Assembly (NCBI RefSeq): GCF_030269765.1
Contig: NZ_BSTX01000001.1
Location: forward strand, 1,975,571-2,039,570
Length of the DNA stretch: 64,000 nucleotides
Direction of reading: 5' to 3'
From: Actinorhabdospora filicis
GTDB taxonomy: Bacteria > Actinomycetota > Actinomycetes > Mycobacteriales > Micromonosporaceae
Shown here: one piece after another, positions 4,405 through 48,963 of the stretch
Layout of the letters: every line of letters starts with the position of its first letter
Numbering within the stretch: position 1 is the first letter of the stretch
Program-made: the position numbers and the translations under genes
Notes under the pieces: generated by a model
Seen by the model: the letters and a program-made list of their open reading frames with translations, nothing else
Told to the model about the DNA's origin: nothing
Databases searched by the model: none

Positions 4405-4557
4405 ATGAGGAATCTCGCCGACCGCTTACTCAACCGCCTGGTGCCCAAACAGACCGCCTGGGCCTGCCGCTTGGAGATCTGCGGCTCGACGCCCACGCAC
4501 GACTGCCACGCCTGCTGCAACATCCGCACCGGTGCGTGCAGCCCCTGTTCGTGCTGA
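4405..4557 (+). CDS. small cysteine-rich peptide (50 aa), possible RiPP or metallothionein-like
   Basis: GGAGAAG RBS 5 nt upstream of the ATG. Amphipathic leader-like N-terminus, then an 8-Cys C-terminal half (CRLEICGSTPTHDCHACCNIRTGACSPCSC). Contains a rare TTA Leu codon. Confidence 0.4.
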   Translation: MRNLADRLLNRLVPKQTAWACRLEICGSTPTHDCHACCNIRTGACSPCSC

Positions 4558-4598
4558 CGTGAGGGTGGCGGAGCCCGCCGCGCGGGTTCCGCCGCCGC

Positions 4599-5447
4599 TC
4601 AGCCCAGGACGCCCAGGAAGTGCTCGACCGTGGCGGCCATGGCGGCGCGGGCGTCCTTGATGTACTTGCGGGGGTCCACGACCTTCGGGTCGGCCTCAAG
4701 GTGCGCGCGGACGGCCCCGGTGAAGGCGATGTTCAGCGCGGTGCCGATGTTGATCTTCACCATGCCGCCCTTCACCGCCCGGGCCAGCTCCTCGTCGGGG
4801 ACGCCGGAGGAGCCGTGCAGCACCAGCGGGACCGGCACCGCCGCGGCGATCCGGGCGATCAGCTCGTGGTCGAGGGCGGCGTCGCGCGAGGTCATCGCGT
4901 GCGAGGAGCCGACCGCGACGGCCAGCGCGTCCACCCCGGTCGCCGCCACGTAGGCCGCGGCCTCGCCCGGGTCGGTGCGGGCGCCGGGCGCGTGCGCCGA
5001 CAGCGGCGCCTCGCCCTCCTTGCCGCCGACCTTGCCCAGCTCGCTCTCCACGTACAGCCCCTCGGCCTGCAGGTCCTCCACCGCGCCGGTGGTCAGCCGC
5101 AGGTTCTCGTCATAGGGCAGCTTGGAGTAGTCCACCATCACCGAGCCGAAGCCCAGCCCGGCCGCCTGCCGCCACAGCGCCTCGGACTCCACGTGGTCCA
5201 GGTGCAGCGCGACGGGCACCGAGGCACCGGCGGCCACGGCCTGGGAGGCGCGCGCGATCACGTCGAGGCGCCCGTGGTGGAACTTCACCGCGTTCTCGCT
5301 GATCTGCAGGATCACCGGCCGCCCGGCGGCCTCCGCCCCGGCCACGATCGCCTCGGCGTGCTCCAGCGTGATCACGTTGAACGCGCCCAGGCCGAAGCCC
5401 TCGCGGCGCGCCTCGGTCACCAGGGCGGCGGTGTGGACGAGGGGCAT
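4599..5447 (-). CDS. class II ketose-bisphosphate aldolase (tagatose/fructose-1,6-bisphosphate aldolase, GatY/KbaY-like)
   Basis: 282 aa with HLDH metal-binding motif and GSSG near the C-terminus, both typical of class II aldolases. Confidence 0.85.
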   Translation of the reverse strand: MPLVHTAALVTEARREGFGLGAFNVITLEHAEAIVAGAEAAGRPVILQISENAVKFHHGRLDVIARASQAVAAGASVPVALHLDHVESEALWRQAAGLGFGSVMVDYSKLPYDENLRLTTGAVEDLQAEGLYVESELGKVGGKEGEAPLSAHAPGARTDPGEAAAYVAATGVDALAVAVGSSHAMTSRDAALDHELIARIAAAVPVPLVLHGSSGVPDEELARAVKGGMVKINIGTALNIAFTGAVRAHLEADPKVVDPRKYIKDARAAMAATVEHFLGVLG

Positions 5448-16895: not shown

Positions 16896-16963
16896 GGTTC
16901 ACTCGTGCCCGAGTGCCTTTTGAGCAGTGCCCTTTTGTGCCCGCCCACCCCCGGGAACCGAAT

Positions 16964-19690: not shown

Positions 19691-19702
19691 GACGAGCCTC
19701 GG

Positions 19703-19733
19703 CGGCCGTGATCATCCGAGATGATCACGGCCG
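19703..19733 (+). terminator. hairpin after L1
   Basis: CGGCCGTGATCAT-ccgag-ATGATCACGGCCG, 13-bp stem directly after the TAG stop. No T-tract, as is common in actinomycetes. Confidence 0.55.
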
Positions 19734-19807
19734 CTTTCATGTCCGCCGTCCCTGCTAGATTCGTCCACCGCAGTGCCCCGTGCCCTCTTCACCCCTGTGG
19801 AACGCCC

Positions 19808-22516
19808 ATGAGAAAGCACGTGCCCTTGACCGTCCTCGCCGTCATCGCGGCGAGCCTCACGGTCCCGGCTGCGGCCTCGGCCGCCGACCGGTCGGACACC
19901 GTGACCCCGCTGCCTGCGGGCGACCATCGCGACATCGTCGTGGACGACGCCCGCGAGCGGATCTTCCTGGCCTCGGCTGATCCGGCGGCCGTGGTCATTG
20001 CCGGGTTCGACGGCGGGATCATCACGACCGTCACCGGGCTGACGTCGCCGGTGGACCTGGAACTCGCGCCGGGCGGGACGGCCGTCTACGCACTGGACGG
20101 CGGAACCCTCGCCCGGATCGACACCACGTCGTTCGCCGTCGACCACGTGACACTTCCGGCCTCACACTGCGCCGATTCGCTGGCCGTGACCGGCGGCAAG
20201 GTCTGGTACTCCTACCATCAGTGCGACGCGCCGGGCGAAGGCTCGATCGCCTCGTTCGAGCCCGGCACCGGGAAGGTCACCGAGAGCGGCCTCACGACTC
20301 GCCCCGGCCGCCTGCTCGCGCGAGCCGACCGCCCGGACCGGCTGGTGCGCTTGGACGAGGCCGGCGCCGACGTCTTCGACGTCTCCGGCGCCGCTGCGCA
20401 GAAGAAGGTGAGCAACGCCGAGCCGGGCTGCGGTGACGCGACCCTGCTCAGGCGAGGGGATCTCGTGCTCACCGCCTGCGGTGGGGACACCAGTCGCTTC
20501 CAGGTCTGGGCCACATCCGACCTGCTGTCGCGCGGCTCGACCTACCTCGGCGAGGAGACCGCCGTCGCGGCCTCCGCCGACGGCCGGTTCGCGGCCTTCG
20601 GCTTCGCCCGCTACCCGGGCGAGTTCGCCGTCCACGTGCGCGACCTGGGCGCCGACCTGTCGGGCGCGTACGTCCGCCGCTTCGAACTTCCCACCGACGC
20701 GGCCGTGACGCCCGGATCCCTCGCGTTCACCGGCGACGGCCGGCTCATCATCGTCCCGACGGCATCGGACGGGACGCGTTCCCTGCGCGTCTACGCCGAT
20801 CCCTTCACTCCGGACGCGGGCCTCACCGCCACCGGCCCCCGCAGGGTCCTTCCCGGCACGCCGATCACCATCACGGGAAAGGTCACCCCGGCACCCGGAC
20901 GCCCGGCCCTGCTGTCGCTGTCCCGGACCCGCAATGACCTCACCGAGTTCCTGCCCGGCGTGTCCACCGATGCCGACGGAAACTACTCGTTCACCGACGA
21001 CCCGCAGGGGTTCACCGGGCGTCTCCTCTACGAGGTCACCGCGTACAACGCCGACGGTTTCGGCGAGGTCAAGCGGTCGGTGCCCGTGGTCGCCCAGGTG
21101 CGTGCCTTCGACTTCAACGCCGACGGCTTCCCCGAGACCGTCACCGGCGCTCCCGGCGAGGACACCGGATCCAGCAAGGACACCGGGCAGATCACCGTCT
21201 TTCCCGGCGGCGCCAACGGCCCCGACCTGACCGCCGGGAAGATCTTCGACCAGGACACCCCCGGCGTGTCCGGCAGCAACGAGACCGGCGACCGCTTCGG
21301 TACCGCCCTCGCCTCCGGCGACTTCAACGGTGACGGCTACGCCGACCTCGCCGTCGGCTCGCCCACGGAGGACAACGACTCCTTCACCGACAGCGGCGCG
21401 ATCATCGTCCTCTACGGATCGTCCAGCGGCCTGAGCACCGAGTCGAACATGTTCGCCTCCGGCGCCCGCACCGGCTACCACCTCGGGCAGTCGCTGGTCG
21501 CACTCGACCTGGACGGCGACGGCATGGACGAGCTGGCCGCGGGCGCGCCCGGGTGGGACTCCGGCGCCGTCCTCGTCTATGAGCGACGCCACGCGTCCCG
21601 GCTACTCGACACCTGGGCCTTCCTCGACCAGGAGTACATGACGGGTGTCAACCACACCGGCGAGGGCTTCGGCTGGTCGCTGGCCACCGGCGACATCGAC
21701 GGCGACGGTCTCGCCGACCTGGCCATCGGCGCCCCTCAGGACACCGATGACAAGGGCTGGTCGACCGGCTCGGTGAGCGTTCTGTACGGCTCAAGGTCCG
21801 GCGTCAACTCACTCGGGGCGCAGCGGATCACCAAGGAGACCCCCGGTGTCCCCGGCTCCGCCGGTCCCCGCAACGCCGCCACCGGCGACGGCGCCGACGA
21901 GTTCGGGCTCAAGCTCGCCATGGGCGACTTCAACGGTGACGGCAGAGACGACCTCGCCGCCGCCGCGCCCGGCACGCACGTGAAGAACGCCGCCGGGACC
22001 GACCAGCCCGACGCCGGGTCGGTCACCGTCCTCTACTCGGACGGCGCCAAGCTCGGCACCACCGGAGCCACCGAGATCACCCAGCTGTCCGGGCCGGTCT
22101 TCGGCGCCCCCGCCGACAACGACTTCTTCGGCGACACCCTCGCCGCCGGAGACGCCAACGGCGACGGCACCGACGAACTGGCGATGTTCTCCTACGGCGA
22201 CGACCGCCTGTGGGTCACGCCGGGCTCCACCGCCGGGCTCCTGCTCGCCACGACCACCGCGTGGAACCAGGACACGCCGGGCATCCCCGGCTCGGCGGAG
22301 TCCGGCGACAAGTGGGGCTCAAGCCTGCGGTTCCTCGCCGGCACCAAGCCCGCCCTGCTCGTGGGCGCGCCGGGTGAGGACGCCCAGCAGGGCGCCTTCA
22401 CCGTCGTGTTCGGCGGTCCTTCGGGACTGACCGGGACGGGGGCGATCTACGTCGGCGAGGACACCCCCGGCGTCCCGGGCACCGCCGAGAACGGCGACAG
22501 ATTCGGGACCTTCTAG
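19808..22516 (+). CDS. secreted YVTN/Ig/FG-GAP protein (paralog L2)
   Basis: Signal peptide MRKHVPLTVLAVIAASLTVPAAASA. Same architecture as L1. Confidence 0.85.
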   Translation: MRKHVPLTVLAVIAASLTVPAAASAADRSDTVTPLPAGDHRDIVVDDARERIFLASADPAAVVIAGFDGGIITTVTGLTSPVDLELAPGGTAVYALDGGTLARIDTTSFAVDHVTLPASHCADSLAVTGGKVWYSYHQCDAPGEGSIASFEPGTGKVTESGLTTRPGRLLARADRPDRLVRLDEAGADVFDVSGAAAQKKVSNAEPGCGDATLLRRGDLVLTACGGDTSRFQVWATSDLLSRGSTYLGEETAVAASADGRFAAFGFARYPGEFAVHVRDLGADLSGAYVRRFELPTDAAVTPGSLAFTGDGRLIIVPTASDGTRSLRVYADPFTPDAGLTATGPRRVLPGTPITITGKVTPAPGRPALLSLSRTRNDLTEFLPGVSTDADGNYSFTDDPQGFTGRLLYEVTAYNADGFGEVKRSVPVVAQVRAFDFNADGFPETVTGAPGEDTGSSKDTGQITVFPGGANGPDLTAGKIFDQDTPGVSGSNETGDRFGTALASGDFNGDGYADLAVGSPTEDNDSFTDSGAIIVLYGSSSGLSTESNMFASGARTGYHLGQSLVALDLDGDGMDELAAGAPGWDSGAVLVYERRHASRLLDTWAFLDQEYMTGVNHTGEGFGWSLATGDIDGDGLADLAIGAPQDTDDKGWSTGSVSVLYGSRSGVNSLGAQRITKETPGVPGSAGPRNAATGDGADEFGLKLAMGDFNGDGRDDLAAAAPGTHVKNAAGTDQPDAGSVTVLYSDGAKLGTTGATEITQLSGPVFGAPADNDFFGDTLAAGDANGDGTDELAMFSYGDDRLWVTPGSTAGLLLATTTAWNQDTPGIPGSAESGDKWGSSLRFLAGTKPALLVGAPGEDAQQGAFTVVFGGPSGLTGTGAIYVGEDTPGVPGTAENGDRFGTF

Positions 22517-22529
22517 GCCCATTACACCC

Positions 22530-22566
22530 AACCGGCCGCGATCACCCAGAGTGATCGCGGCCGGTT
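22530..22566 (+). terminator. hairpin after L2
   Basis: AACCGGCCGCGATCAC-ccaga-GTGATCGCGGCCGGTT. Paralogous to the L1 hairpin. Confidence 0.55.
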
Positions 22567-22636
22567 CGTTGTATCGATGACCTGCTATTTTGATGATCCA
22601 CTCCGTGCCCTGCCCCACTTCACCCCTGGAACACCC

Positions 22637-25411
22637 ATGCGCAAACGCGTGCCCGCGATCCTCGCCGCCCTGACCGTGGTGGCGGCGGGTCTCATCACCA
22701 TCGTCCCGGCGAGCGCCGAGGCCGCGGAACCCGCGAACGCGGTACCGGCCGATAGAGCGGTCCGTCTGCCGGGCGGCACGTTCACCGCGCTCGGCGATGA
22801 CACCGCACACGGACGGATCTATATCGCCCTGAACAATCCGGACGCGGTGGCGGTGGCCCGGACCGATGGCACGCTGGCCACGACCATCACCGGCGTGACG
22901 CGGCCGTCCGAACTCGTCGTGGCCCCGGACGGCGCGACCGTCTACGCCATCGAGAGCGGCTCGTCCTCCTTCGCGCGGGTGGACACCGCGACGAACGCCG
23001 TCGACCGGGTGCTCCTTCCGGAAACCCACTGCCCTGAATCGGCGACGTTCACGGGCGGGCGACTCTGGTACTCCTACCGTGTATGCGGCGCCGAGACACG
23101 ATCGCTGGCCTCCTACGACCCGGCTTCCGGCGCGATCACCGAAAGCGGTGTGAACGTTGCTGCAGGCGACGTGCGCGCGCTGCCGCAGCGTCCGGAACGG
23201 TTGCTGGTCCTGAGCGCGGCGGCCGATGGTGGCATGCGGGTTTATGACGCCACGCGGGACACGCCGATTGAGGTGGCTCGCACGGACCGGGGCGGCTGCT
23301 TCGCCGCCACCTTCATCAACGGTGGCGACGCGGTCATCGCGACCTGCGCCGGCTCCAACGCGCATCCGGTGTACCTCACGGCCGACCTTACGACCGACCA
23401 GTCCATCTCCGACGACACCGCGACTTCGGCGGCGGTGTCGGCCAGCCCCGACGGGAAGAACATCGCGGTCGCTTCGAGGACCTGGAACGCCGCGAGCCAG
23501 ACGATCCGTATTCGCTCGATCGGAAACGGGCTTCCCGGCGAATCCGTCCGGAGCTACACGGCTCGCGACCTGGCGCCGGAGAGCGTCGTCCTCACCGACG
23601 GCTCGATGCTCCTCATCGTCGACGCTTCGGCCACCAATCACCCGCTCCTGCGCATCCATAAGGCCCCGTATCACCGGGTGACCTTCATCGACGCCAGATC
23701 CGCCATCGCGCCCATCGACTACCACGGCACCGCGAGGCTGTCGGGGACTCTGATGTCCTGGGACGGGAACTGGCGCAGCAGCCCGCTGGCCGCGGGCACG
23801 ATCCGCGTATGGCGCTCCGACCGCACCGGCGCCCGTGCCGTGGGAACGGCCTCCGTGGGCCCGGACGGCACCTTCGCCTTCGACGATCCGGCCGGGGCGG
23901 TGACCGGGCAGATCGTCTACACCTTCTCCTTCGACGGCGATGAACGCCACCTCAGGTCCAGCGGGAGCCAGTCCGTGATCGTCCGCCCGGTCCCCTTCGA
24001 CTTCGACGGTGACGGCCGCGCCGACGGGGTGAGCGGCGCGCCCTGGGAGGACACCGGCCGGTCCACGGACACCGGACAACTGCACGTCTTCCCCGCCGGT
24101 GCCAAGGGCCTGGATCTCGGCGCGGGCAGGATCTTCGATCAGGACACCCCGGATGTCTCCGGGAGCAACGAGACCGGCGACCGCTTCGGCTCGTCCTTCG
24201 CTTCGGGAGACTTCGACGCCGATGGCTTCGCCGACCTCGCCGTCGGTGTGCCCGGTGAGGACAATGACGCCTATCGCGACGGCGGTGCCGTAATCCTCCT
24301 CTACGGCTCCGTGTACGGGCTGACCTCGCGTTCCCGGATGCTCGCCCGGGATGTCGCCGGGGCGGAGTTCGGGCGTTCTCTCGCCGCGGGCGACTTCGAT
24401 GGTGATGGGGCGGCCGATCTCGCCGTCGGCGCACCGGGAGAAGGCTCCGGACGAACCTTCGTGTACGCCGGAAGCCGTGGCGGCGGGATGGACACGACGG
24501 CACGCGTGGCCCTGGGCCAGGGCCTCGGTCAACGGCCCGTTCCAGGGGCGAGCTACACCGGCGATCACTTCGGCTGGTCCCTCGCCACCGGCGACATCAA
24601 CGGGGACGGACGATCCGATCTCGTCGTGGGTACACCGCACGATCGCGATGACACCGATGCCCCCACCGGATCGGTGACCGTGCTCTACGGACGCGCCGAA
24701 ACGGCGTTCCTCACCTCCGACGGCGCACAGTGGATCTCGAAGGAGACGGCCGGGGTCCCGGGTGCCGCCGGACCGGCGAATCCGAAGACGGGCGACGGTT
24801 CCGACGAGTTCGGGCTCAAGGTCGCGATGGGCGACTTCAACGGTGACGGTAAGGACGACCTGGCCGTCGCCGCGCCCGGCGCACATGTGAAGAACGCGGC
24901 CGGGAAAGACCAGCCGGACGCTGGAACCGTGACCGTCCTCTACTCGGACGGCGCCAAGCTCGGCACCACCGGAGCCACCGAGATCACCCAGCTGTCCGGG
25001 CCGGTCTTCGGCGCCCCCGCCGACAACGACTTCTTCGGCGACACCCTCGCCGCCGGAGACGCCAACGGCGACGGCACCGACGAACTGGCGATGTTCTCCT
25101 ACGGCGACGACCGCCTCTGGATCGCCCCGGGCTCACCCAAGGGCCTCGACATCGGCGCGACGGCCATGTGGAGCCAGGACACACCGGGCGTCCCGGGTTC
25201 GGCGGAATCCGGCGATAAGTGGGGATCCAGCCTGCGTTTCCTCTCCGGGGACACGCCCCTTCTGCTGGTCGGCGCACCCGGCGAGGACGACCGGCAGGGC
25301 GCGTTCACCGTCATCCGGGGCCTTTCGGGCACGGGCGCGGTGTTCGTCGGCGAGGACTCGCCGGGGGTTCCGGGCACCGCCGAGAAGGGCGATGGGTTCG
25401 GGACGTTCTGA
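22637..25411 (+). CDS. secreted YVTN/Ig/FG-GAP protein (paralog L3)
   Basis: Signal peptide MRKRVPAILAALTVVAAGLITIVPASAEA. Upstream region similar to the L2 promoter region. Confidence 0.85.
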   Translation: MRKRVPAILAALTVVAAGLITIVPASAEAAEPANAVPADRAVRLPGGTFTALGDDTAHGRIYIALNNPDAVAVARTDGTLATTITGVTRPSELVVAPDGATVYAIESGSSSFARVDTATNAVDRVLLPETHCPESATFTGGRLWYSYRVCGAETRSLASYDPASGAITESGVNVAAGDVRALPQRPERLLVLSAAADGGMRVYDATRDTPIEVARTDRGGCFAATFINGGDAVIATCAGSNAHPVYLTADLTTDQSISDDTATSAAVSASPDGKNIAVASRTWNAASQTIRIRSIGNGLPGESVRSYTARDLAPESVVLTDGSMLLIVDASATNHPLLRIHKAPYHRVTFIDARSAIAPIDYHGTARLSGTLMSWDGNWRSSPLAAGTIRVWRSDRTGARAVGTASVGPDGTFAFDDPAGAVTGQIVYTFSFDGDERHLRSSGSQSVIVRPVPFDFDGDGRADGVSGAPWEDTGRSTDTGQLHVFPAGAKGLDLGAGRIFDQDTPDVSGSNETGDRFGSSFASGDFDADGFADLAVGVPGEDNDAYRDGGAVILLYGSVYGLTSRSRMLARDVAGAEFGRSLAAGDFDGDGAADLAVGAPGEGSGRTFVYAGSRGGGMDTTARVALGQGLGQRPVPGASYTGDHFGWSLATGDINGDGRSDLVVGTPHDRDDTDAPTGSVTVLYGRAETAFLTSDGAQWISKETAGVPGAAGPANPKTGDGSDEFGLKVAMGDFNGDGKDDLAVAAPGAHVKNAAGKDQPDAGTVTVLYSDGAKLGTTGATEITQLSGPVFGAPADNDFFGDTLAAGDANGDGTDELAMFSYGDDRLWIAPGSPKGLDIGATAMWSQDTPGVPGSAESGDKWGSSLRFLSGDTPLLLVGAPGEDDRQGAFTVIRGLSGTGAVFVGEDSPGVPGTAEKGDGFGTF

Positions 25412-25526: not shown

Positions 25527-25850
25527 GTGACCGATTCCGCGCCCCGTACCGCCGCGCTCGCCGACGTCCGTGCCGAGCGTGCCCGGCAGGACGAGCTGTG
25601 GGGCGAGCAGAACCACGTGGACGGGACGGGGATGAAGCGGCACCAGGAGGCCCTGGAGGCCACCCGGGACATCACCGACCGCTCGGCGGAGGTGGGGACG
25701 CTGACGTGGGCGGAGATCCTGAGCGAGGAGGTCGCCGAGGCGCTCGCCGAGCACGACCCGGTGAAGCTGCGCGCGGAACTCATCCAGGTCGCGGCGGTGG
25801 CGGTGGCGTGGGTCGAGGCGATCGACCGGCGGACCAACGGCCGCCGGTGA
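25527..25850 (+). CDS. hypothetical protein (possible MazG-like helical NTP-pyrophosphohydrolase fold)
   Basis: GTG start with GGAGGAG RBS 6 nt upstream. Acidic helical motifs EEVAEALAEHD. Convergent with the giant ATPase. Confidence 0.45.
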   Translation: MTDSAPRTAALADVRAERARQDELWGEQNHVDGTGMKRHQEALEATRDITDRSAEVGTLTWAEILSEEVAEALAEHDPVKLRAELIQVAAVAVAWVEAIDRRTNGRR

Positions 25851-25859
25851 CACCGCCTC

Positions 25860-28800
25860 TCACCGCTCCCGGATCGCCCGCTCCACCGCGCTGACCTGGT
25901 CGGCGAGCAGCCCGACCGCGCCCACGGCGCGGGCGAGCGGGTCGTCACCGCTGCCGCCGAGGGCGCGGGCGCGCAGGTAGCCCTGGCGGACCTCGTCCCA
26001 GCGGCGGGACTGCTCCTCGGAGAGGCGCCCGCGCAGGGCGGCCAGCTTCAGCAGGTTCGACTCGGCGCCGCTGGTGAGGGTCTGGGCCTCACCGGCGTAG
26101 TGGTCGTCGATGACGGCTTCCAGCTCCTCGTCGTTCATGGCGGGCACGATCCGCTCGGCGAGCTTGTTCATGTTGCGGTAGCTGCCCTGGAGCTGGAACG
26201 GGGGTTCCACGCGGGTGTCGTCGGACTGGGCCGCGGAGGCGATGTAGGCCTGGTTGTTGGCCAGGACGACGCGCTGGACGCGGCGGAGCTTACGCAGGAC
26301 GGACAGGATCCGCTCCAGCTCGGTGGCGGTGTAGGGGTGGGACAGGGCGTCGGGTGAGGCGGTGGAGTCGCCGTCGGCAAGGCGTACCAGAAGTTCCACG
26401 TCGCCGCGCTCGCGAGTGGACAGTGGCGCCAGCACGGGGTTCGAGGTGAGCGAGTTCTCCACATAGGACAGTGCGAACAGCTCCTCGCGGCCGGACAGCA
26501 CGTCGCCCAGGTTCCACACGTCGGCGCGGTTGGCGAGCATGTCGGGGATGCGGAAGCGCTGGCCGCTCTCGGTGTAGGGGTTGCCGGCCATGCACACCGC
26601 GAACCGCTTGCCGCGCAGGTCGTAGGTGCGGGTGCGGCCCTCCCAGACGCCCTCCATGCGGCGCTGGCCGTCGCAGAGGGAGATGAACTTCTGCAGCAGT
26701 TCCGGCGAGGTGTGCTGGATGTCGTCCAGGTACAGCAGGACGTTACTGCCCGCCTCCAGCGCGAAGTTGATCTTCTCCACCTCCTGGCGGGACGTCGCGT
26801 CGGGCGCCTCGGCGGGGTCGAGGGAGGTGACGTGATGGCCGAGGGAGGGCCCGTTCACCTTCACGAACACCAGACCGAGGCGGGAGGCGACGTACTCCAT
26901 GAGGGTCGTCTTGCCGTAGCCGGGCGGGGAGATCAGCAGCAGCATCCCGGACTGGTCGGTGCGCTTGTCGTCGCCGGCCGCGCCGATCTGCTTGGCGAGG
27001 TTGGCGCCGATCAGCGGCAGGTACACCTCGTCCAGGAGGCGGTTGCGGACGAAGGAGGTGAGCACCTTCGGCTTGTACTCCTCCAGCCGCAGGCGATCGC
27101 GTTCGGCGCCCAGCAGGACGTTGCGGGCGCGCTGGTAGTCGCGGAAGCCGGGCACGCGCTCGCGGCGGAAGCGGGCGGTGCGGGCCAGGACCTCGTCCAG
27201 CCGGAAGGACAGGCGGCGGCCCTCGACGCGGGCGTGCGTCCCCAGTAGACCGTCCACGGTGGCGGTGAGGGTGGCCGAGGAGTCGCGGCGGGCGACGTCC
27301 TTGCCGAGCGCCTCGATCGCCACCGCCTCGGGCAGGTCGGCCGCGTCCCCTTCGGCGCCGGACGCCAGGAACGCGCCCAGCCACGCCGAGGTGAGCTGGT
27401 GGCGGGCGGCCAGGTCGTCCCCGAGGGAGCGCAGGTCGTCCTCGTAGGCGGCCAGGCGGGCGCCCAGGGCGGTCCGGAAGCGCTGCGTCAGCTGCTTGGC
27501 CGCGGCGGAGGTGACGAAGCCGTTGCGGGAGCCGGCGAGTTCCTCGAAGAGGTACTCGGCGGCCAGCGGGGCGTCGTCCACAGTGGGCAGGCCGCGCGAC
27601 TCGGTGAAGGCGGCGATCGCGGCGGCCAGTTCGGCGCGCAGGTCGGCGATGGCGCCGGGCTCGCCGAAGAGCTCCCGGACGCGCGACAGCGAGCCGATGC
27701 GGGTGACCAGGGCGGCGCGCTCGTCCTCGGCGGGCCCGTGGGCCCAGTAGAACTGGGCGGCGGCGCGGGCGGCGGGCGGGTAGCGCAGCAGCCCGGCGCT
27801 CTCGTAGAGGCGCAGGACCACGCGCAGGATCTCGGTGGCGTCGTGGTCGTGGACGCCGCGCTCGTAGCCCTCGTCGTAGCGGGACTCGGCGGTGGCGCGG
27901 ACCAGGTCCGGCAGGCCGTCGCCGACGGCGGCCTCGTGCAGCTGGAGCAGGCGCCCGGCGGCGCGCTCGGCGTCCAGAATGGACGCCGCCAGGTACTCGG
28001 CGCGGTAGACATCGGCGGTCTCCGAGACCAGCACCTGGCCCCAGTAGTCGCGGGTGGCGGCGAAGGCGGGATCGCCGACCACGCGCCGGTAGTCGGTGCC
28101 GGTGAGGGAGAAGGCCAGCTCGCCGTCGGAGGGCACCAGCGTCAGGTCGAGGGGCTGGGTGTTGACCGGGAGGCGGTGGCGGCCCAGCTTGATGGTGTCG
28201 CCGTCGTAGAGGTCCTGCCGGTCGCGCAGGGAGCGCCCGGCCTCCTGGCGGGCGGCCTTGATGCGCCCGGCCAGTTCCTCGGCGCGGACGCCGTCGCCCA
28301 GCGCGCGCAGCTCATCGGCGACCGAGCGGAGCTTGGCCACCATCGGGTCGGTGGCGAAGTAGGTGTTGACCGCGTCCAGCGAGTCCAGAGTGGACACCCG
28401 GCGGTTGACGGAGTCCAGGATGCGCTCGGCGGAGTCGGCCAGCCGCTCGGCGCGGCGGGCGCGCTCGTCGAGCAGGTTCTGCTTGCGGGAGGAGAAGGCC
28501 TCGTAGACGTCGGTGCGCTTGGCGGCCAGCTCGCCGAGGAAGTCGTCGAACTCGCCGAAGCGCGACTCCAGGTTCTCCAGCTGGAGCATCAGGCGGCCGA
28601 GCTGCTCGTCGCAGGACTCGGGCGTGGACGCCGCGGCCAGCGCGCCGGTGACGGCCTGGCCCAGCAGCGCGAACTCGGCGGCGAACTCCGCGCGTCCCTC
28701 CGAGGACAGCAGCTCGCGGCGGCGGGCGTCGAGGGTGGCGCGGGCCCGGTTGACCCCGGCCAGCACCTCGCCGATGCGCTCCAGGATCCCGGTGCGCACG

Positions 28801-30776
28801 GTGGCGTCGGCGATGTCGAGTGTGGACACCACCTCGGTGAGGACCTCCAGCCCGGCGCTCTGCTCGGCCAGCCGCTCGGTCAGCGGTTTGGCCTGCGCGA
28901 CCGAGCCGATGGCCTCGGCCTCGGCGGTGAGGCGGGCGATGGACTCGTGGTAGCCGGCGAAGGCGTCGGCGGCCCGCAGGAAGTCCACCGCGCGCCCGGC
29001 GGCCGAGGCGAGCTCGGCGGCCACCGCGTCGTCCAGTGTGGACAGGCGGGCCAGGTCGAGGTAGCGGCGGTCCCGCAGGGTCACCAGGTGCCCCTGCGCG
29101 CCGCGGAGTTCGGCGAGCTGGGCGACCCAGGCGTCGGCGGTCTTGGGCGCCTCGCCGCTGGAGCGGCGGATCATCGAGCGCGTGTCGCTCTCGGCCCGGT
29201 CGAGGTCGGCGGCGGCCTGGTCGGTGAGCTCGCGGACGGTCTCGTACTCGTCGAGGACCTGCTCGGCGGTGGCGCGGACGCCGCCGAGCGGCTCGTCCAG
29301 GCCGCCCAGTTCGTCGTCCCCGAGCCAGTAGTAGGCGTCGGCGGCGCGGACGCAGGCGGCGATCAGCGCCTCGTAGACCTCGATGGAGGGCGCCATCTCG
29401 GCGACCATGCGGGCGATCGACAGGCAGTCGGACACCCCGCGGACCAGCTCGGCGTTGCCGATCCGCTCCAGCGGGCCGGTGCCGACGGGCCGCTCGGCGG
29501 CGAAGGTGTCGGACACGAAGGCGGTCTGCCACACCTGCATCGGGTGGACCCGGGAGGGTTCTTCGCCGTTGGCCCGGAACGCCACCATGGTGCCGTCCTC
29601 GAACAGCGAGTACCCGTGGCAGCTCAGGGGTGTGCTGACTTCCTTGCGGATCAGGTTGTAGGGCAGCAGGAGCGTGCGGCCCTCGGCGCGCTGGTAGAAG
29701 ACGAACAGCACGTCCTCGCCGTTGGGTGAGCGCACGACGCGCTCGAACTCCAGCTCGGCGGGGTCGGTGTCGAAGGTCTTGGCCACGCCGGTGGCGAGGT
29801 AGTAGCCGCCGGGGAAGATGAGGCCCTGGTCCTCGGGCAGGACCCGGCAGGCCTGGCCGATGCCGTCGAGCCGGTCGACGGTCTTGGTGCGGGTATTGAA
29901 GACCAGGTGCCGCACGACGGTCTCGTTGTACGGGCGGATCCGCAGCAGGATCAGCGCACCGACGCGGGCGTAGGAGATGTCGGCGTCGGCGAGGCTCTGC
30001 AGCTTCTCGTCGACGGCCTCGCGGTAGACGCCCTCGCCGGTCTCGGTGTTGTTCTCGATCTTGATGGTCAGGTCGCCGCCGACGGTCTCCACGAAGACCT
30101 CGCCGCCGATGGAGACGTGCGGGTGGCGGCCCAGGACGTGGTCGTCGCGGGTGGTGGGCGTCCACTCGAAGTCGTGCGAGGGCGGGAAGACGTGGTCGCG
30201 GTCGCCACGGGCGTCCATGTAGGACACATCACCGGCGGCGGTGACGTTCCAGCGCAGGACGCGGATGTCGTCGATCTTCTCGCCGATCTGGAACACCGCG
30301 AGCAGCCGGCCCTCGACCCGGCGCAGCTGGAGCAGGTGCGCCTGCCGGTAGTAGCGGTACAGCTCGGCGAAGTCGCGCTGGAACTGGGCGTCGTCCAGCA
30401 GCCCCGGCAGGTCGCCGGGTTCGGCGGGGGTGAAGGTGAAGGAGTCGCCGTCGCGCTCGAAGCGGTGCAGGGAGAACACGTCGGAGACGGTGGTCTCCGG
30501 GCGCAGCCCGATGAACACGTTGTACCCGAACAGCATCAGCCCGCCGACCTCGACGATGTCGCGGGGGACGCAGTTGTTGGCGGTGCGGACGCGTTCGGTG
30601 CCCAGCAGGGACAGCTCGGTGCCGCCGAAGACCTCCAGGCGGCGCGCGTTCAGGTCCTCGGCCCGCCGCGCCAGCTTCTGCGACTGTTCGGCCAGCCGCG
30701 CGCGCAGGACCTCGTAGGTCCCGGCGTCGAGCTCGGCCGCGGGGGCGGGGGTGATGGTCTCGGTGGGCTGGCTCAT
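25860..30776 (-). CDS. giant (~1638 aa) AAA+ ATPase of unknown function (MoxR/dynein-like C-terminal domain, long helical N-terminus)
   Basis: GAGGAG RBS upstream of the ATG at 30776. Walker A ISPPGYGKTTL (approx. nt 26905-26935), Walker B NVLLYLDD, sensor NRADVW. Long coiled-coil-rich N-terminal 1200 aa. Lies 43 nt downstream of the flotillin gene on the same strand. Confidence 0.8.
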   Translation of the reverse strand: MSQPTETITPAPAAELDAGTYEVLRARLAEQSQKLARRAEDLNARRLEVFGGTELSLLGTERVRTANNCVPRDIVEVGGLMLFGYNVFIGLRPETTVSDVFSLHRFERDGDSFTFTPAEPGDLPGLLDDAQFQRDFAELYRYYRQAHLLQLRRVEGRLLAVFQIGEKIDDIRVLRWNVTAAGDVSYMDARGDRDHVFPPSHDFEWTPTTRDDHVLGRHPHVSIGGEVFVETVGGDLTIKIENNTETGEGVYREAVDEKLQSLADADISYARVGALILLRIRPYNETVVRHLVFNTRTKTVDRLDGIGQACRVLPEDQGLIFPGGYYLATGVAKTFDTDPAELEFERVVRSPNGEDVLFVFYQRAEGRTLLLPYNLIRKEVSTPLSCHGYSLFEDGTMVAFRANGEEPSRVHPMQVWQTAFVSDTFAAERPVGTGPLERIGNAELVRGVSDCLSIARMVAEMAPSIEVYEALIAACVRAADAYYWLGDDELGGLDEPLGGVRATAEQVLDEYETVRELTDQAAADLDRAESDTRSMIRRSSGEAPKTADAWVAQLAELRGAQGHLVTLRDRRYLDLARLSTLDDAVAAELASAAGRAVDFLRAADAFAGYHESIARLTAEAEAIGSVAQAKPLTERLAEQSAGLEVLTEVVSTLDIADATVRTGILERIGEVLAGVNRARATLDARRRELLSSEGRAEFAAEFALLGQAVTGALAAASTPESCDEQLGRLMLQLENLESRFGEFDDFLGELAAKRTDVYEAFSSRKQNLLDERARRAERLADSAERILDSVNRRVSTLDSLDAVNTYFATDPMVAKLRSVADELRALGDGVRAEELAGRIKAARQEAGRSLRDRQDLYDGDTIKLGRHRLPVNTQPLDLTLVPSDGELAFSLTGTDYRRVVGDPAFAATRDYWGQVLVSETADVYRAEYLAASILDAERAAGRLLQLHEAAVGDGLPDLVRATAESRYDEGYERGVHDHDATEILRVVLRLYESAGLLRYPPAARAAAQFYWAHGPAEDERAALVTRIGSLSRVRELFGEPGAIADLRAELAAAIAAFTESRGLPTVDDAPLAAEYLFEELAGSRNGFVTSAAAKQLTQRFRTALGARLAAYEDDLRSLGDDLAARHQLTSAWLGAFLASGAEGDAADLPEAVAIEALGKDVARRDSSATLTATVDGLLGTHARVEGRRLSFRLDEVLARTARFRRERVPGFRDYQRARNVLLGAERDRLRLEEYKPKVLTSFVRNRLLDEVYLPLIGANLAKQIGAAGDDKRTDQSGMLLLISPPGYGKTTLMEYVASRLGLVFVKVNGPSLGHHVTSLDPAEAPDATSRQEVEKINFALEAGSNVLLYLDDIQHTSPELLQKFISLCDGQRRMEGVWEGRTRTYDLRGKRFAVCMAGNPYTESGQRFRIPDMLANRADVWNLGDVLSGREELFALSYVENSLTSNPVLAPLSTRERGDVELLVRLADGDSTASPDALSHPYTATELERILSVLRKLRRVQRVVLANNQAYIASAAQSDDTRVEPPFQLQGSYRNMNKLAERIVPAMNDEELEAVIDDHYAGEAQTLTSGAESNLLKLAALRGRLSEEQSRRWDEVRQGYLRARALGGSGDDPLARAVGAVGLLADQVSAVERAIRER

Positions 30777-30863
30777 GTCGGCTCCTCGCCAGGGCAATGA
30801 CGAATAGGCGGGCGGGCACAAAGGAGTGGGACGGACGCCTCCCGGCGTCCGTCCCCAGTGGAC

Positions 30864-32942
30864 CTACTTGGCGGCCGCGGTCAGCGCCGCCACCGGCGCG
30901 TCGGCCAGCCCCAGGCTGCGGGCCACGCCCAGCAGCTCGGTGAGCTTGTCGGCGTGCGGGCCGCCGTTGCCGATGAGCTTGACCAGCAGCGCCGAGATGG
31001 TGAGGTTCTTGACGTCCTCGGTGGACACCGACGACAGCAGGCGGGTGATGTCCTGCGTGAAGTCGCTGGACCCGTTCAGCCAGCTCGCGCCGAGCGTGGA
31101 GACCACATCGGACTGCTGGACGAAGCCGTCCACGGCCTTGCCCATGCCGATCGCGCCGGTGACGCGGTCGAAGAACGCCCCGTCGCCGCCGACGATGCTG
31201 ATGTCGGCCTTCTCCAGGCCGGTGGCCAGGACCCGGGCCTGCGCCTCGGCGACCTCGCGGTGCACGTTGATGCCGGCCAGGCGCACGTCCTTCTCCGCCT
31301 CCAGGCGCAGCCGGAACTCCTCGTGCTCGCGGGACGCCTCGTCCAGCGCCGCCATCGCGGCCGCCTTCTGCGTGAGCCCCTCGGCCTCGCCGAGCAGCCG
31401 GTCCTTCAGGGCCTGCGCCTCGGCGCGGCCCTTCGCCTCCAGCGCGGCGGCCTCGGACGCGCCGGTCTCGCGCAGCACCTCGGCGCGCGCCTTGCCCTTC
31501 GCGGCCTCCGCGGCCGCCTCGGCCAGACCCGACTTCTCGATGACGTCGGCCTCCTGCTCGCGGACCTGGACCTCGGCGAGACCGGTCGCGGCCATCTCGG
31601 CCTGGACGCCCTCGGCCAGGCGGATCTTGGCCCGCGCGTCCAGCTCGGCGGCCTGCTGGCGCGCCTCGGCCAGGATCAGGTTCTCGCGCGCCTTGTGCTT
31701 GGCCGCGGCCTCGGCGGCCTCGGCGGCCTTGATGTCCTTGACCAGGCCCTCCTGCGCCTCGGCCTCGGCCTGGATGATGATGGCCTGGCGGGTGCGCTCG
31801 GCCTCCTCGACGGTGCGCAGGCGCTTGATGTTCTCCTCCTGCTCGGCCACCGTCTTCTCCACCGCGATGCGTTCGCGGATGACCTCGGCGATCGAGCGCT
31901 TCTCGCCCTCGACCTCCTTGTCCTTGGAGATCGTGGACAGCTGGACCTCGCGCTCACGCGCGACGACCTCAAGCAGCCGGTCCTTCTCGATGCGCTCGGT
32001 CTCGATGGCGATGACGCGCTCGCGGTTCTTCTCGGCCACCGCGATCTCGCGGGCCTGGTTCTCCTTCTGGATGCCCAGCTGCTCCTCGGTGCGGATGTCG
32101 GCGGTGGACGACTTCAGCCGCTCCTCGGCGCGGACCTTCTCGATCTCGGCCTCCTCGCGGGCCCGCATCGTCTCGATCTCGCGCCGCTGCTTGATCTCGG
32201 CCTCCGACTGGCGCCGCTCCAGCTCCAGGATCGCCTCCTTGGCGTCCACGTCCTGGCGCTTGAGCTCCTTCTCCTGGTTGCGGCGGTAGTCGTTGGTGCG
32301 GACCGACTCGATCGCGGTCAGCTCGGTGATCTTGCGGATGCCCTGCGCGTCCAGGATGTTCTGCGGGTCGAGCTGCCCCATCGGGGTCTGCTCCAGGTAG
32401 TCGATCGCGGCGTCTTCGAGGCTGTACCCGTTCAGATCGGTGCCGATGACGCGGATGATCTGGTCGCGGAACTCGTCGCGCTTGGTGTACAGGTCGACGA
32501 AGTCGAGCTGCTTGCCGACGGTCTTGAGGGCCTCGGAGAACTTCGCGTTGAACAGCTCCTGGAGCGTGTGCTCATCGGAGGCGCGGGCGGTGCCGATCGC
32601 CTGCGCGACCTTGACGACGTCCTCGACGGTCTTGTTGACCCGCACGAAGAACGAGATGCGGATGTCGGCGCGGATGTTGTCCTGGCAGATCAGGCCCTCG
32701 GTGCCGGTCCGCTTGATCTCGATGGTCTTCACCGAGATGTCCATCAGCTCGGCCTTGTGCAGCACCGGGAGCACCACGGCGCCGGTGAACGTGACGTCCA
32801 CTTTGCGCAGTTTGGAGATGATGAGGGCCTTGCCCTGCTCGACCTTGCGGAACAACCGCGAGACGGCGAACAGGATCACCAGCAGGATCACCAGGAGCAC
32901 GGCGGCGACGACTACCGCCGTCGACGAGAAGAACTCAGTCAT
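30864..32942 (-). CDS. flotillin (SPFH/band-7 domain, FloT/YqiK-like)
   Basis: N-terminal TM helix, SPFH domain, then a long Glu/Ala/Arg-rich coiled-coil region (EAEIEKVRAEERLK...) and a C-terminal domain. Confidence 0.9.
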   Translation of the reverse strand: MTEFFSSTAVVVAAVLLVILLVILFAVSRLFRKVEQGKALIISKLRKVDVTFTGAVVLPVLHKAELMDISVKTIEIKRTGTEGLICQDNIRADIRISFFVRVNKTVEDVVKVAQAIGTARASDEHTLQELFNAKFSEALKTVGKQLDFVDLYTKRDEFRDQIIRVIGTDLNGYSLEDAAIDYLEQTPMGQLDPQNILDAQGIRKITELTAIESVRTNDYRRNQEKELKRQDVDAKEAILELERRQSEAEIKQRREIETMRAREEAEIEKVRAEERLKSSTADIRTEEQLGIQKENQAREIAVAEKNRERVIAIETERIEKDRLLEVVAREREVQLSTISKDKEVEGEKRSIAEVIRERIAVEKTVAEQEENIKRLRTVEEAERTRQAIIIQAEAEAQEGLVKDIKAAEAAEAAAKHKARENLILAEARQQAAELDARAKIRLAEGVQAEMAATGLAEVQVREQEADVIEKSGLAEAAAEAAKGKARAEVLRETGASEAAALEAKGRAEAQALKDRLLGEAEGLTQKAAAMAALDEASREHEEFRLRLEAEKDVRLAGINVHREVAEAQARVLATGLEKADISIVGGDGAFFDRVTGAIGMGKAVDGFVQQSDVVSTLGASWLNGSSDFTQDITRLLSSVSTEDVKNLTISALLVKLIGNGGPHADKLTELLGVARSLGLADAPVAALTAAAK

Positions 32943-32980
32943 GTGTTCGACCTCGGTGTGAAGGGCAATTGGGCAATGTC

Positions 32981-33604
32981 TTACAGAGAAGTCGTGGGCA
33001 GTCCGTCGGCGCCGACCGGCGTCACGAAGAACACCTCGCGGATTTCGTCGTAGTCGAAGATCAGCGCGGTGTCACCGATCTTGAGCACGGCGTCCCCGTG
33101 GACGCGGACCTGCACGATCGAGGTCCCGCCACCGGGCGAGGAAACCTCCGCCTGACCGAAATCGCCGGTCACCCGTCCCGTTTTGATGAGACAAGGACGG
33201 CCGACCAGATCGGCGCGGGAAATGTTGGGTTCGGGCGCGAAAACCCGGCGCAACGGGGCGATGAACGCCCGCGTGAGCGCCCACGCCACGACCAGGGCGA
33301 TGAGCAGCACGACGACGCCGAGGCCGATGCGCACGGCGAGAGGCGAATCCAGCAGCAATGCGGTCCCGATGAGACTGACCGTCCAGGAGAACAGGGTCAT
33401 GAAGCTGATGACGATGGTGACGGGCACATGTCCCAGCCCAAGCCCCGCGAGGGCGCCACCGGTGTCCGCCGCGCCGGCGCCGTCCAGCACCTCGGAGTCG
33501 GCCAGCCCGATCAGGGTGAACAGCCAGAAACCGATGACCACCAGAAGCAGCACGGTGAACGGGACGGCCGGGAAAGCGAGACTGGCCTTGATGAGGGTGC
33601 TCAC
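32981..33604 (-). CDS. NfeD-like membrane protein (flotillin-associated)
   Basis: Polytopic N-terminus plus a C-terminal soluble OB-like segment (GRVTGDFGQAEVSS...IVQVRVHGD). Directly upstream of the flotillin gene, the classic nfeD-floT arrangement. Confidence 0.75.
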   Translation of the reverse strand: MSTLIKASLAFPAVPFTVLLLVVIGFWLFTLIGLADSEVLDGAGAADTGGALAGLGLGHVPVTIVISFMTLFSWTVSLIGTALLLDSPLAVRIGLGVVVLLIALVVAWALTRAFIAPLRRVFAPEPNISRADLVGRPCLIKTGRVTGDFGQAEVSSPGGGTSIVQVRVHGDAVLKIGDTALIFDYDEIREVFFVTPVGADGLPTTSL

Positions 33605-33657
33605 TCACACGCTCGCATTGCTGCGCCTCATACAGCCGATCCGCTCCTCACGTGGGT

Positions 33658-33669
33658 CTTGAATTCAAG
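33658..33669. promoter_or_regulatory. AT-rich 12-bp perfect palindrome upstream of nfeD
   Basis: CTTGAATTCAAG in the nfeD 5' region. The rc strand has TTGACA nearby. Candidate operator. Confidence 0.25.
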
Positions 33670-33784
33670 GTAGCGGGTCGTGTCAAGAAAGCGGGCTGGC
33701 GGAATGGGGCGAAGTGAGTGGAGGAATGGGGGATGCGCGGGCCGAAAGGGGCGGATCAGCGTGATGGGGATCTCGGGCGGGCAC

Positions 33785-33818
33785 GAAAAAACGGCCCGGA
33801 GCCCACGCCCCGGGCCGT
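33785..33818 (-). terminator. rho-independent terminator of msiK
   Basis: On the minus strand: ACGGCCCGGGGCGTGGGCTCCGGGCCGT followed by TTTTTT, immediately downstream of the msiK stop. Confidence 0.7.
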
Positions 33819-43190: not shown

Positions 43191-43328
43191 GGCTTCTCCC
43201 TCAGGCCTGCCGGTGACCGTAGGTGCACTACGGGCACAGCGAAGCTCGCCCATGTGAATGGACGTGCGCCACGCCGTGAAAAAGGGCCGCCCCTGAGGAG
43301 ACGGCCCTTTCACTATCGGTATTCGAGG

Positions 43329-46037: not shown

Positions 46038-46110
46038 GTGTCTTCCGGGGGTGTGGGCATCAAGAAGGGCGAGCCCGATCTTATCCCCGGTCGATCTTGC
46101 CCGGCACGGC

Positions 46111-46140
46111 GAAGGCCGCCCGCCGAAGCGGGCGGCCTTC
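46111..46140 (-). terminator. hairpin after R3
   Basis: GAAGGCCGCCCGC-cgaa-GCGGGCGGCCTTC, 13-bp GC stem just downstream of the R3 stop. Confidence 0.6.
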
Positions 46141-46152
46141 GTCCATCACCTG

Positions 46153-48891: not shown

Positions 48892-48963
48892 GAAATCCCC
48901 GTTGAGGATGGGCAATGGGCAAGGGCGAACGCCATGTTAATCCCGCCCGTCCACCGGGGGAAC

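Follow-up and report, generated by a model that had tools for sequence, protein, structure and literature searches.

Introduction

The closest described relative of the locus studied here is an operon type reported by Ravi et al. (mSystems, 2024, PMC11237479; preprint 2020), in which CesT/Tir-PspA operons include a flotillin, a three-transmembrane (3TM) protein of the YqiJ/YuaF type and a "novel AAA+ ATPase with coiled-coil and beta-propeller". The operon was framed there as PspA-associated, such AAA+ links were compared with Vps4-Snf7, and abbreviated operons without PspA were described as more widespread. Here we analyze three consecutive genes in a 64,000-nucleotide (nt) stretch of the Actinorhabdospora filicis genome (about 72% G+C), hereafter called the window. 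They encode a YqiJ/NfeD-like membrane protein of 207 amino acids (aa) (32981-33604, GTG start), a YqiK-type flotillin of 692 aa (30864-32942) and an AAA+ protein of 1638 aa (25860-30776) that carries the database name "DNA repair ATPase". These open reading frames (ORFs) all lie on the minus strand, as do the features given below unless stated otherwise, and they were found where an original prediction, made from the sequence, had placed them. That prediction regarded them as an undescribed system, which no longer holds: the operon type is that of Ravi et al. (2024), and the N-terminal domains of the ATPase are Pfam families. We regard the locus as an ordinary example of a cassette that is widespread and already noted computationally. 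Our analysis adds the clade of the motor, counts that place the flotillin-ATPase pair at the core of the cassette, a recurrent hairpin, an invariant Walker B DD and a GVHDHDA motif, and an unsupported database name. We consider that the cassette probably forms a self-contained, membrane-associated, ATP-driven protein-remodelling machine.

The function of bacterial flotillins is disputed, and we know of no energy-consuming partner established for them except FtsH, in the case of HflK/C. In the bacterial inner membrane, FtsH-HflK/C sets the precedent of an AAA+ machine that works together with an SPFH scaffold. MoxR-clade motors such as CbbQ, NorQ and midasin each act on one particular partner complex, which they remodel by way of an adaptor domain. 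According to three reports cited in the literature (Tan, 2024; Fu & MacKinnon, 2024; Ukleja, 2024), SPFH proteins form cages, with solved assemblies for HflK/C, QmcA-YbbJ and flotillin-1/2, and Staphylococcus aureus FloA-NfeD stabilises unfolded proteins.

Results

The flotillin and ATPase genes are paired in both directions

A scan of one genome per species found relatives of the ATPase in at least 585 species-representative genomes, from which the closest 80 loci were kept. Among these best 80, all 77 loci that include upstream DNA have a flotillin gene as the adjacent upstream neighbour, in the same orientation, three of them from Myxococcota, one from a Clostridia metagenome-assembled genome (MAG) and one from a proteobacterial MAG. 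Over all loci anchored on the ATPase, the flotillin is upstream in 83 of the 84 that are informative. Starting from the flotillin gives the reciprocal result, with the ATPase directly downstream in 59 of 63 metagenomic loci (flotillins at 47-80% identity, downstream DNA of 700 nt or more). Represented among the loci are Actinomycetota, Myxococcota, Bacteroidota, Planctomycetota, Verrucomicrobiota and Pseudomonadota. Conserved co-occurrence had been set beforehand as the point on which the pairing could fail, and the adjacency proved to be nearly obligate in both directions across at least six phyla.

Among distant members, whose ATPases are 28-36% identical, flotillins (43-47% identity over the full length) are encoded in the Planctomycetota and Verrucomicrobiota loci and in three of four Bacteroidota loci, and a flotillin also accompanies the ATPase on the Pseudomonas plasmid pQBR103. 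Genes for 216-aa and 683-aa proteins precede the ATPase in Aureliella (Planctomycetota) and genes for 226-aa and 698-aa proteins do so in Prosthecobacter (Verrucomicrobiota), while the order in Hymenobacter is PspA, 213 aa, 722 aa and ATPase. Aureispira encodes a 242-aa protein, a short Band_7 paralogue and a 708-aa protein ahead of the ATPase, Dysgonomonas has the flotillin, two inserted genes and then the ATPase, and Aureibacter has the ATPase alone. The short paralogue of Aureispira is 224 aa long and stands ahead of the long flotillin (4523-5197 of locus L086 in our numbering), and the genes inserted between the Dysgonomonas pair are a Peptidase_M54 gene and a gene for a 184-aa protein (L085, 6673-7902). 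Directly downstream of the Hymenobacter ATPase are GmrSD_N and AAA_23 genes (L084, 13094-15801).

A hidden Markov model (HMM) search detected the YqiJ-like gene in 68 of 86 loci, where it precedes the flotillin. In 13 Streptomyces loci (among them L051, L056, L061 and L073) the flotillin and the ATPase are kept and no YqiJ-like gene was detected by the HMM, the gene being either lost or too divergent to detect in this subgroup. Since these loci keep the pair, we regard flotillin plus ATPase, not nfeD plus flotillin, as the invariant core. No fourth conserved gene was found in the neighbourhoods of the 86 loci. The same Streptomyces loci carry a divergently transcribed gene for a PucR-like regulator about 400-500 nt upstream of the flotillin, a candidate for a dedicated regulator; it was rejected as a fourth conserved gene, being present only in a subset of loci, mostly Streptomyces.

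Full-length architecture of the ATPase is kept down to 28% identity, with 473 clusters at 50% identity and E < 1e-30. Over 1600 aa, identity is about 70% between actinobacterial orders and falls to 55% with Myxococcota. No member was found in 50,697 phage records, and of 72,556 plasmid records 13 carry one, most of these being megaplasmids, chromids or mislabelled chromosomes. Such very high conservation, with no phage copies and few plasmid copies, fits a cellular housekeeping or stress role. The same figures bear on anti-phage or abortive-infection defence, in which the propeller of the giant protein would act as the sensor of an invader, with membrane disruption left to the ATPase and flotillin. 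Defence systems often contain giant NTPases with repeat-domain sensors, GmrSD_N and AAA_23 genes come after the cassette in Hymenobacter, one copy resides on the megaplasmid pQBR103, and the convergent ORF of the window is a member of a phage protein family. However, PADLOC gave only P-loop-level matches to IetA (E 2e-3 to 5e-3), and the flanks of the cassette are differing ordinary genes, not defence islands. Together with the conservation and the phage and plasmid counts, this makes defence very unlikely.

The giant protein carries a MoxR-clade AAA+ module

The AAA+ module occupies residues ~1240-1450 (26427-27059) and was placed by structure comparison in the MoxR/midasin/dynein clade: its model scored 16.8 against CbbQ, 16.7 against NorQ, 14.9 against midasin and 14.3 against dynein, with everything else at 13.2 or below. 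Foldseek on the same model agrees, and the MoxR/dynein-like assignment of the original prediction is thereby borne out. A search against Protein Data Bank (PDB) sequences had given P-loop-only matches to classical-clade AAA proteins such as Rix7, Cdc48 and Rpt3; the classical-clade reading that these would support was overturned by the structure comparison.

The three motifs first read from the sequence are all present, namely Walker A SPPGYGKTT (residues 1283-1291; 26904-26930), Walker B LLYLDD (1347-1352; 26721-26738) and NRADVW (1416-1421). The last had been taken for the sensor; the motif stands, while the sensor-1 asparagine is N1399. NRADVW presumably corresponds to the arginine-finger end of the MoxR-type motif NPxExxG...LPxAxLDRF, which can be read here as NPYTESG...IPDMLANRADVW (26514-26585). 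In an alignment of 25 sequences at 30-61% identity, Walker A, N1399 and R1417 are invariant. Walker B reads LDD in every member and departs from the canonical hhhhDE, the second Asp standing where most AAA+ proteins have a catalytic Glu, with D1351 and D1352 invariant in the alignment down to 30% identity. This variant may denote slow or regulated hydrolysis; DnaA has a similar Walker B (DDIQ) and hydrolyses ATP slowly.

The AlphaFold model of residues 1150-1638 has a predicted local distance difference test score (pLDDT) of 79.6. In it, helix 3 and the sensor-1 strand are separated by a hairpin (model residues 224-237). The helix-2 position is taken by a loop of 14 residues that is conserved (VTSLDPxxAPxA), with no predicted hairpin. 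Residues 1451-1638 (25863-26426) are modelled as helical and would comprise the AAA+ lid and a conserved extension, with Q1530-G-S-Y-R-x-M among the conserved residues.

Kinship with CbbQ and NorQ raises another explanation, in which the ATPase serves solely as a chaperone for assembly or maturation, building the flotillin/YqiJ complex or inserting a cofactor. CbbQ and NorQ mature or activate their partner enzymes, the Walker B DD variant suggests slow turnover, and the invariant His/Asp-rich GVHDHDA motif described below could bind a metal. This explanation overlaps the remodelling machine and is hard to separate from it computationally. On the other side, the conserved neighbourhood contains no VWA/MIDAS partner and no enzyme client, and an arm of 1240 aa that comprises a propeller and coiled coils would be excessive for a simple assembly factor. 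We therefore hold a pure chaperone to be quite unlikely, and continue to favour ATP-driven remodelling.

The N-terminal region is partly a predicted beta-propeller

The original prediction found nothing that the N-terminal 1200 residues resembled. They do match two Pfam families, DUF3686 (PF12458, E 3e-220, 731.7 bits against a cut-off of 25; residues 35-483, 29328-30674) and DUF7902 (PF25472, E 8e-34, 116.2 bits against a cut-off of 26; residues 604-688, 28713-28967). These families followed by AAA domains form an architecture common to all listed homologues. The AlphaFold model of residues 1-1200 (pLDDT 70.9, predicted template modelling score (pTM) 0.35) shows an N-terminal helix, about 26 beta strands at residues ~70-420, long helices at 440-855, a small beta unit and a helical domain at 920-1160. 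Helical and coiled-coil structure, as first proposed for the whole region, thus applies to about two thirds of it, with the exception of the stranded residues ~70-420.

Those strands are modelled as a beta-propeller, so that the DUF3686 region would consist of the N-terminal helix followed by the propeller. Foldseek matched them to propellers (prolyl oligopeptidase, WD40, Ski8) and, weakly, matched the whole model to clathrin heavy chain, with probabilities of 0.9-1.0. For the whole 1200-aa model, TM-scores are at most 0.26 when normalised to the target and about 0.1 when normalised to the query; we use these matches only for the predicted order "propeller then helices" and claim no kinship with clathrin or nucleoporins. 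The long helical, coiled-coil-like region (residues 440-855, 28212-29459) has AlphaFold helices of up to 58 residues.

Within the second helical domain of the model (residues 920-1160, 27297-28019) lies the motif GVHDHDA (974-980, 27837-27857), recognised in the cross-phylum alignment. G974, H976 and D979 are invariant in the 25 sequences, and D977 and A980 nearly so. The motif is kept from Actinomycetota to Bacteroidota inside an otherwise variable domain, and no family match accounts for it. Metals or nucleotides are often the ligands of such His/Asp-rich motifs.

Lacking any hydrophobic segment, the protein is read as soluble, while both of its partners are membrane proteins. According to its database name, it would be a DNA-repair ATPase sitting beside a flotillin incidentally. 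NCBI and Pfam both use that name, RuvB_N gives weak matches (E 6e-4, P-loop only) and RuvB is among the Foldseek matches; in addition, a Shewanella mutant in a YqiK-family gene showed increased spontaneous mutation, which its authors attributed to iron and oxidative stress. Yet the protein showed no DNA-binding or nuclease domain, repair genes are not among the recurrent neighbours, and we found no paper backing the name. The two-way linkage to a membrane scaffold means that the adjacency cannot be incidental. A repair function is scarcely credible, and the name is without support in our analysis.

Both partners are divergent members of known membrane families

The 692-aa protein can be assigned as a divergent YqiK-type flotillin (SPFH). 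Against Escherichia coli YqiK, BLASTP gave 28% identity over 464 aa (E 3e-38) and the family profile gave a probability of 99.6% (E 3.6e-24). Pfam Band_7 matches 9 of 20 close homologues (72-86% identity; best E 1e-9). The sequence itself has no Band_7 match, with Pfam and NCBIfam scans empty; there was likewise no match to the Pfam flotillin domain, and a profile search of PDB sequences returned nothing. An N-terminal hydrophobic segment at residues 1-35 serves as the membrane anchor and is followed by a long Glu/Ala-rich coiled coil, in which the alignment to YqiK reaches residue 468. The C-terminal ~220 aa do not align to YqiK, yet they are conserved across phyla within the ATPase-linked subfamily. 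Cross-phylum identity of the flotillin is 43-62% and includes H540-E541-E542 and G585-G586 in the C-terminal part.

We assign the 207-aa protein as a putative short NfeD-like membrane protein of the YqiJ/YuaF type. Hydropathy gives three hydrophobic segments (residues 3-40, 50-85 and 81-119), and the C-terminal region is beta-rich. Aligned with E. coli YqiJ by hhalign, its family profile matched with a probability of 85% (E 5.9e-6, residues 42-184). Of its homologues, 3 of 19 match Pfam YqiJ_N (6e-6) and 2 of 19 match NfeD (0.02), while the sequence itself has no Pfam or NCBIfam match. The original description of a classical nfeD/floT module was therefore right in that both proteins are genuine relatives and too simple in that both are divergent, neither matching Pfam Band_7 or NfeD directly and each being identified only through profiles or homologues.

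PspA recurs in the neighbourhood of some relatives

PspA/IM30 is encoded in the same gene string as the cassette in Hymenobacter and on pQBR103. The plasmid order is YjfI, PspA, rhomboid, DUF2491, DUF350, DUF1190, glutathionylspermidine synthase, a 217-aa protein, SPFH and "DNA repair ATPase". Because this string contains the present ATPase family, the cassette belongs to the same family as the operon of Ravi et al. (2024). A tblastn search with one Bacteroidota PspA found none in the window or beside the cassette in the other genome loci, a single-sequence query being a weak test for a divergent copy.

These neighbours raise the possibility of a different substrate. The ATPase might act in a Vps4-like manner on PspA or ESCRT-III-type polymers, with the flotillin and the YqiJ-like protein as a recruiting membrane platform. 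Both PspA-containing strings and the PspA framing and Vps4-Snf7 comparison of Ravi et al. (PMC11237479) speak for such a role. The near-invariant neighbour is the flotillin, however, not PspA, which the tblastn search, within its limits, did not place beside the cassette here or in the other genome loci. Moreover, the clade of the AAA+ module is that of MoxR and not the classical one of Vps4, and no MIT-like domain was seen. We judge direct action on PspA to be decidedly unlikely.

A full-text literature search for DUF3686 or PF12458 returned nothing, and in the literature we found no experiment on any member of the cassette and no paper linking MoxR with SPFH or flotillin proteins. A survey of Pseudomonas aeruginosa SPFH proteins and a paper on conflict systems do not mention this ATPase.

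A hairpin recurs between flotillin and ATPase

Between the flotillin stop and the ATPase start is a perfect 12-bp GC-rich hairpin (30828-30855, z -1.9) that occurs nowhere else in the window. Of the 54 loci whose gap is at least 40 nt, 48 have a strong hairpin in this place; they come from several phyla, with a median z of -3.4 and no sequence conservation. In 28 of 83 loci the gap is below 40 nt and the genes nearly abut. Streptomyces species share one near-identical version. The hairpin of the window may be a partial terminator or an mRNA-stability element, and its recurrence would suit an internal element that attenuates or stabilises the transcript and gives a high ratio of scaffold to motor.

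Gene calls and boundaries of the cassette

Proteins of the window are 100% identical to A. filicis Afil01_19030 (the AAA+ protein) and Afil01_19040. G+C content at third codon positions (GC3) is 0.85 for the YqiJ-like gene, 0.98 for the flotillin and 0.97 for the ATPase, which in a genome of 72% G+C argues that all three are real genes. The ATPase starts at ATG 30776, which is preceded by a GAGGAG ribosome-binding site and agrees with the N-termini of homologues. The maximal ORF would begin at TTG 30821 (1653 aa, 42-nt gap). This start was ruled out by the non-coding GC pattern of its 15 extra codons (30777-30821), the GAGGAG at ATG 30776 and the homologue alignment. The distance from the flotillin stop to the ATPase start is thus 87 nt, correcting an earlier value of 43 nt, and 38 nt separate the end of the YqiJ-like gene from the start of the flotillin.

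On the upstream side, the cassette is bounded by the intrinsic terminator of a MalK-like ABC ATPase gene identified with Pfam (33786-33816; stem GGCCCGGGGCGTGGGCTCCGGGCC followed by TTTTTT). A TTGACA hexamer read at 33681-33686, 77 nt upstream of the first gene, is a weak candidate -35 box; a consensus promoter scan upstream of the cassette found no full promoter, and the hexamer is a lead only. An 8-codon ORF (33604-33631) begins at ATG 33631 behind a GAGGAG (33644-33649), and its TGA abuts the GTG of the YqiJ-like gene, an arrangement that suggests translational coupling or a leader peptide.

On the downstream side, a small convergent ORF on the plus strand (25527-25850) ends 9 nt from the ATPase stop codon. 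It looks real (GC3 0.94) and matches phrog_2831 (E 4e-27), a phage protein family of unknown function; it is not conserved beside the cassette in the 86 other loci. Six paralogous FG-GAP repeat proteins of about 900 aa flank the region in two inverted triplets (16913-25411 on the plus strand, 40518-48915 on the minus strand). The original prediction took this array as added support for a system. Neither these six genes nor the ABC ATPase, MarR, MFS or small convergent ORF of the window recur beside the cassette in the 86 other loci, and all were rejected as parts of the system.

Discussion

In the remodelling machine that we favour, the flotillin, anchored by its N-terminal hydrophobic segment, would assemble on the cytoplasmic side of the membrane into a ring or dome like those of solved SPFH proteins, and the three-pass YqiJ-like protein would sit within the enclosed membrane patch. 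The soluble giant protein would oligomerise via its C-terminal MoxR-type AAA+ module, its long coiled-coil arms with beta-propeller tips reaching the flotillin assembly. ATP turnover would then pull either on the flotillin cage, leading to its opening, disassembly or turnover, or on clients held there. That the cage itself is the substrate is, within this model, a tentative proposal that we hold to be less likely than not. The setting would be envelope or membrane stress, with the cassette cooperating with PspA encoded beside it or elsewhere. Such a role is the best contextual inference from the PspA/IM30 neighbourhood, and Ravi et al. (PMC11237479) drew the same one.

Several observations weigh against this model. 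Aureibacter has the ATPase without a flotillin, two genes separate the pair in Dysgonomonas, and four metagenomic flotillin loci (L131, L139, L149 and L157; 48-53% identity) have no ATPase within 2.7-7 kb downstream; these last could show what replaces the motor. Because a strong hairpin separates the genes in the window, as it does in most loci whose gap is 40 nt or more, co-transcription cannot be assumed. The Walker B LDD may limit the rate of the proposed motor, and the VWA/MIDAS adaptor typical of MoxR systems was detected neither in the three proteins (Pfam) nor as a further conserved neighbour gene. Confidence in the N-terminal structure model is only moderate, and the geometry of arms and propellers is tentative. 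Finally, the literature offered no direct interaction, localisation or phenotype evidence for any member of the cassette.

A bolder version, which we think unlikely, makes the giant protein an "uncoating" motor for SPFH cages: a MoxR/midasin-type ring whose six propeller-tipped coiled-coil arms would grip the flotillin dome and, using ATP, open or dismantle it in envelope stress, releasing or exposing the membrane patch and its clients. If true, it would be the prokaryotic counterpart of Vps4 on ESCRT-III or of Hsc70/auxilin on clathrin, and the first regulator of flotillin assemblies known to depend on energy.

That the genes are associated is already published, and our analysis does not reveal the biochemical substrate. 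The use of the cassette lies in its simple genetics, one particular MoxR-clade motor accompanying nearly every member of this flotillin subfamily. Carriers that are likely tractable include Myxococcus/Corallococcus, Streptomyces, Proteus mirabilis, Vibrio campbellii and Pseudomonas fluorescens SBW25 (on pQBR103). To identify the target of the motor would be a direct test of whether flotillin cages behave as dynamic compartments under regulation. Correction of the misleading name "DNA repair ATPase", carried by thousands of database entries, would follow.

Compared with described systems, the gene order resembles that of YqiJ-YqiK in E. coli and YuaF-FloT in Bacillus subtilis, where a small multi-pass membrane gene also precedes the flotillin. 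The likeness to YqiJ-YqiK extends to a homologous SPFH domain and coiled coil (28% over 464 aa) and to the YqiJ profile match. The flotillin described here is nevertheless about 140 aa longer than YqiK, with a C-terminal region that YqiK does not align to, and whereas E. coli yqiK is followed by unrelated small-RNA and toxin-peptide genes, the present subfamily almost always occurs with the ATPase. FtsH differs from our protein in being membrane-anchored, of the classical AAA clade and fused to a protease domain; the present protein is a soluble member of the MoxR clade that lacks a protease domain. It also has a 1240-aa extension of propeller and coiled coils, and its flotillin is YqiK-like rather than HflK/C-like.

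With the MoxR systems (CbbQ-CbbO, NorQ-NorD, RavA-ViaA) and midasin, the AAA+ module shares the readable NPxExxG...P..L..R motif, and the hairpin of its model may be the pre-sensor-1 hairpin. Unlike them, it has no VWA/MIDAS partner gene or domain, its Walker B ends in DD instead of DE, and it is a module at the C-terminus of a 1638-aa protein instead of a stand-alone ATPase of about 300 aa. Clathrin heavy chain and protocoatomer proteins likewise have an N-terminal propeller followed by a long helical region, and clathrin (1xi4) was the top Foldseek match (E 4e-5). TM-scores of about 0.1, no sequence similarity and long coiled-coil-like helices in place of a short-repeat solenoid set them apart; the likeness is a loose architectural resemblance and no evidence of kinship.

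The operon of Ravi et al. (2024) comes closest, and the window matches its flotillin, its 3TM YqiJ/YuaF protein and its AAA+ protein with coiled coil and beta-propeller. No CesT/Tir-PspA pair or phospholipase D is adjacent here, which makes the locus an "abbreviated" form. That report treated the operon in a few sentences and without experiments, leaving the AAA+ clade unassigned and the strictness of the pairing unquantified, whereas both the clade and the counts are given here.

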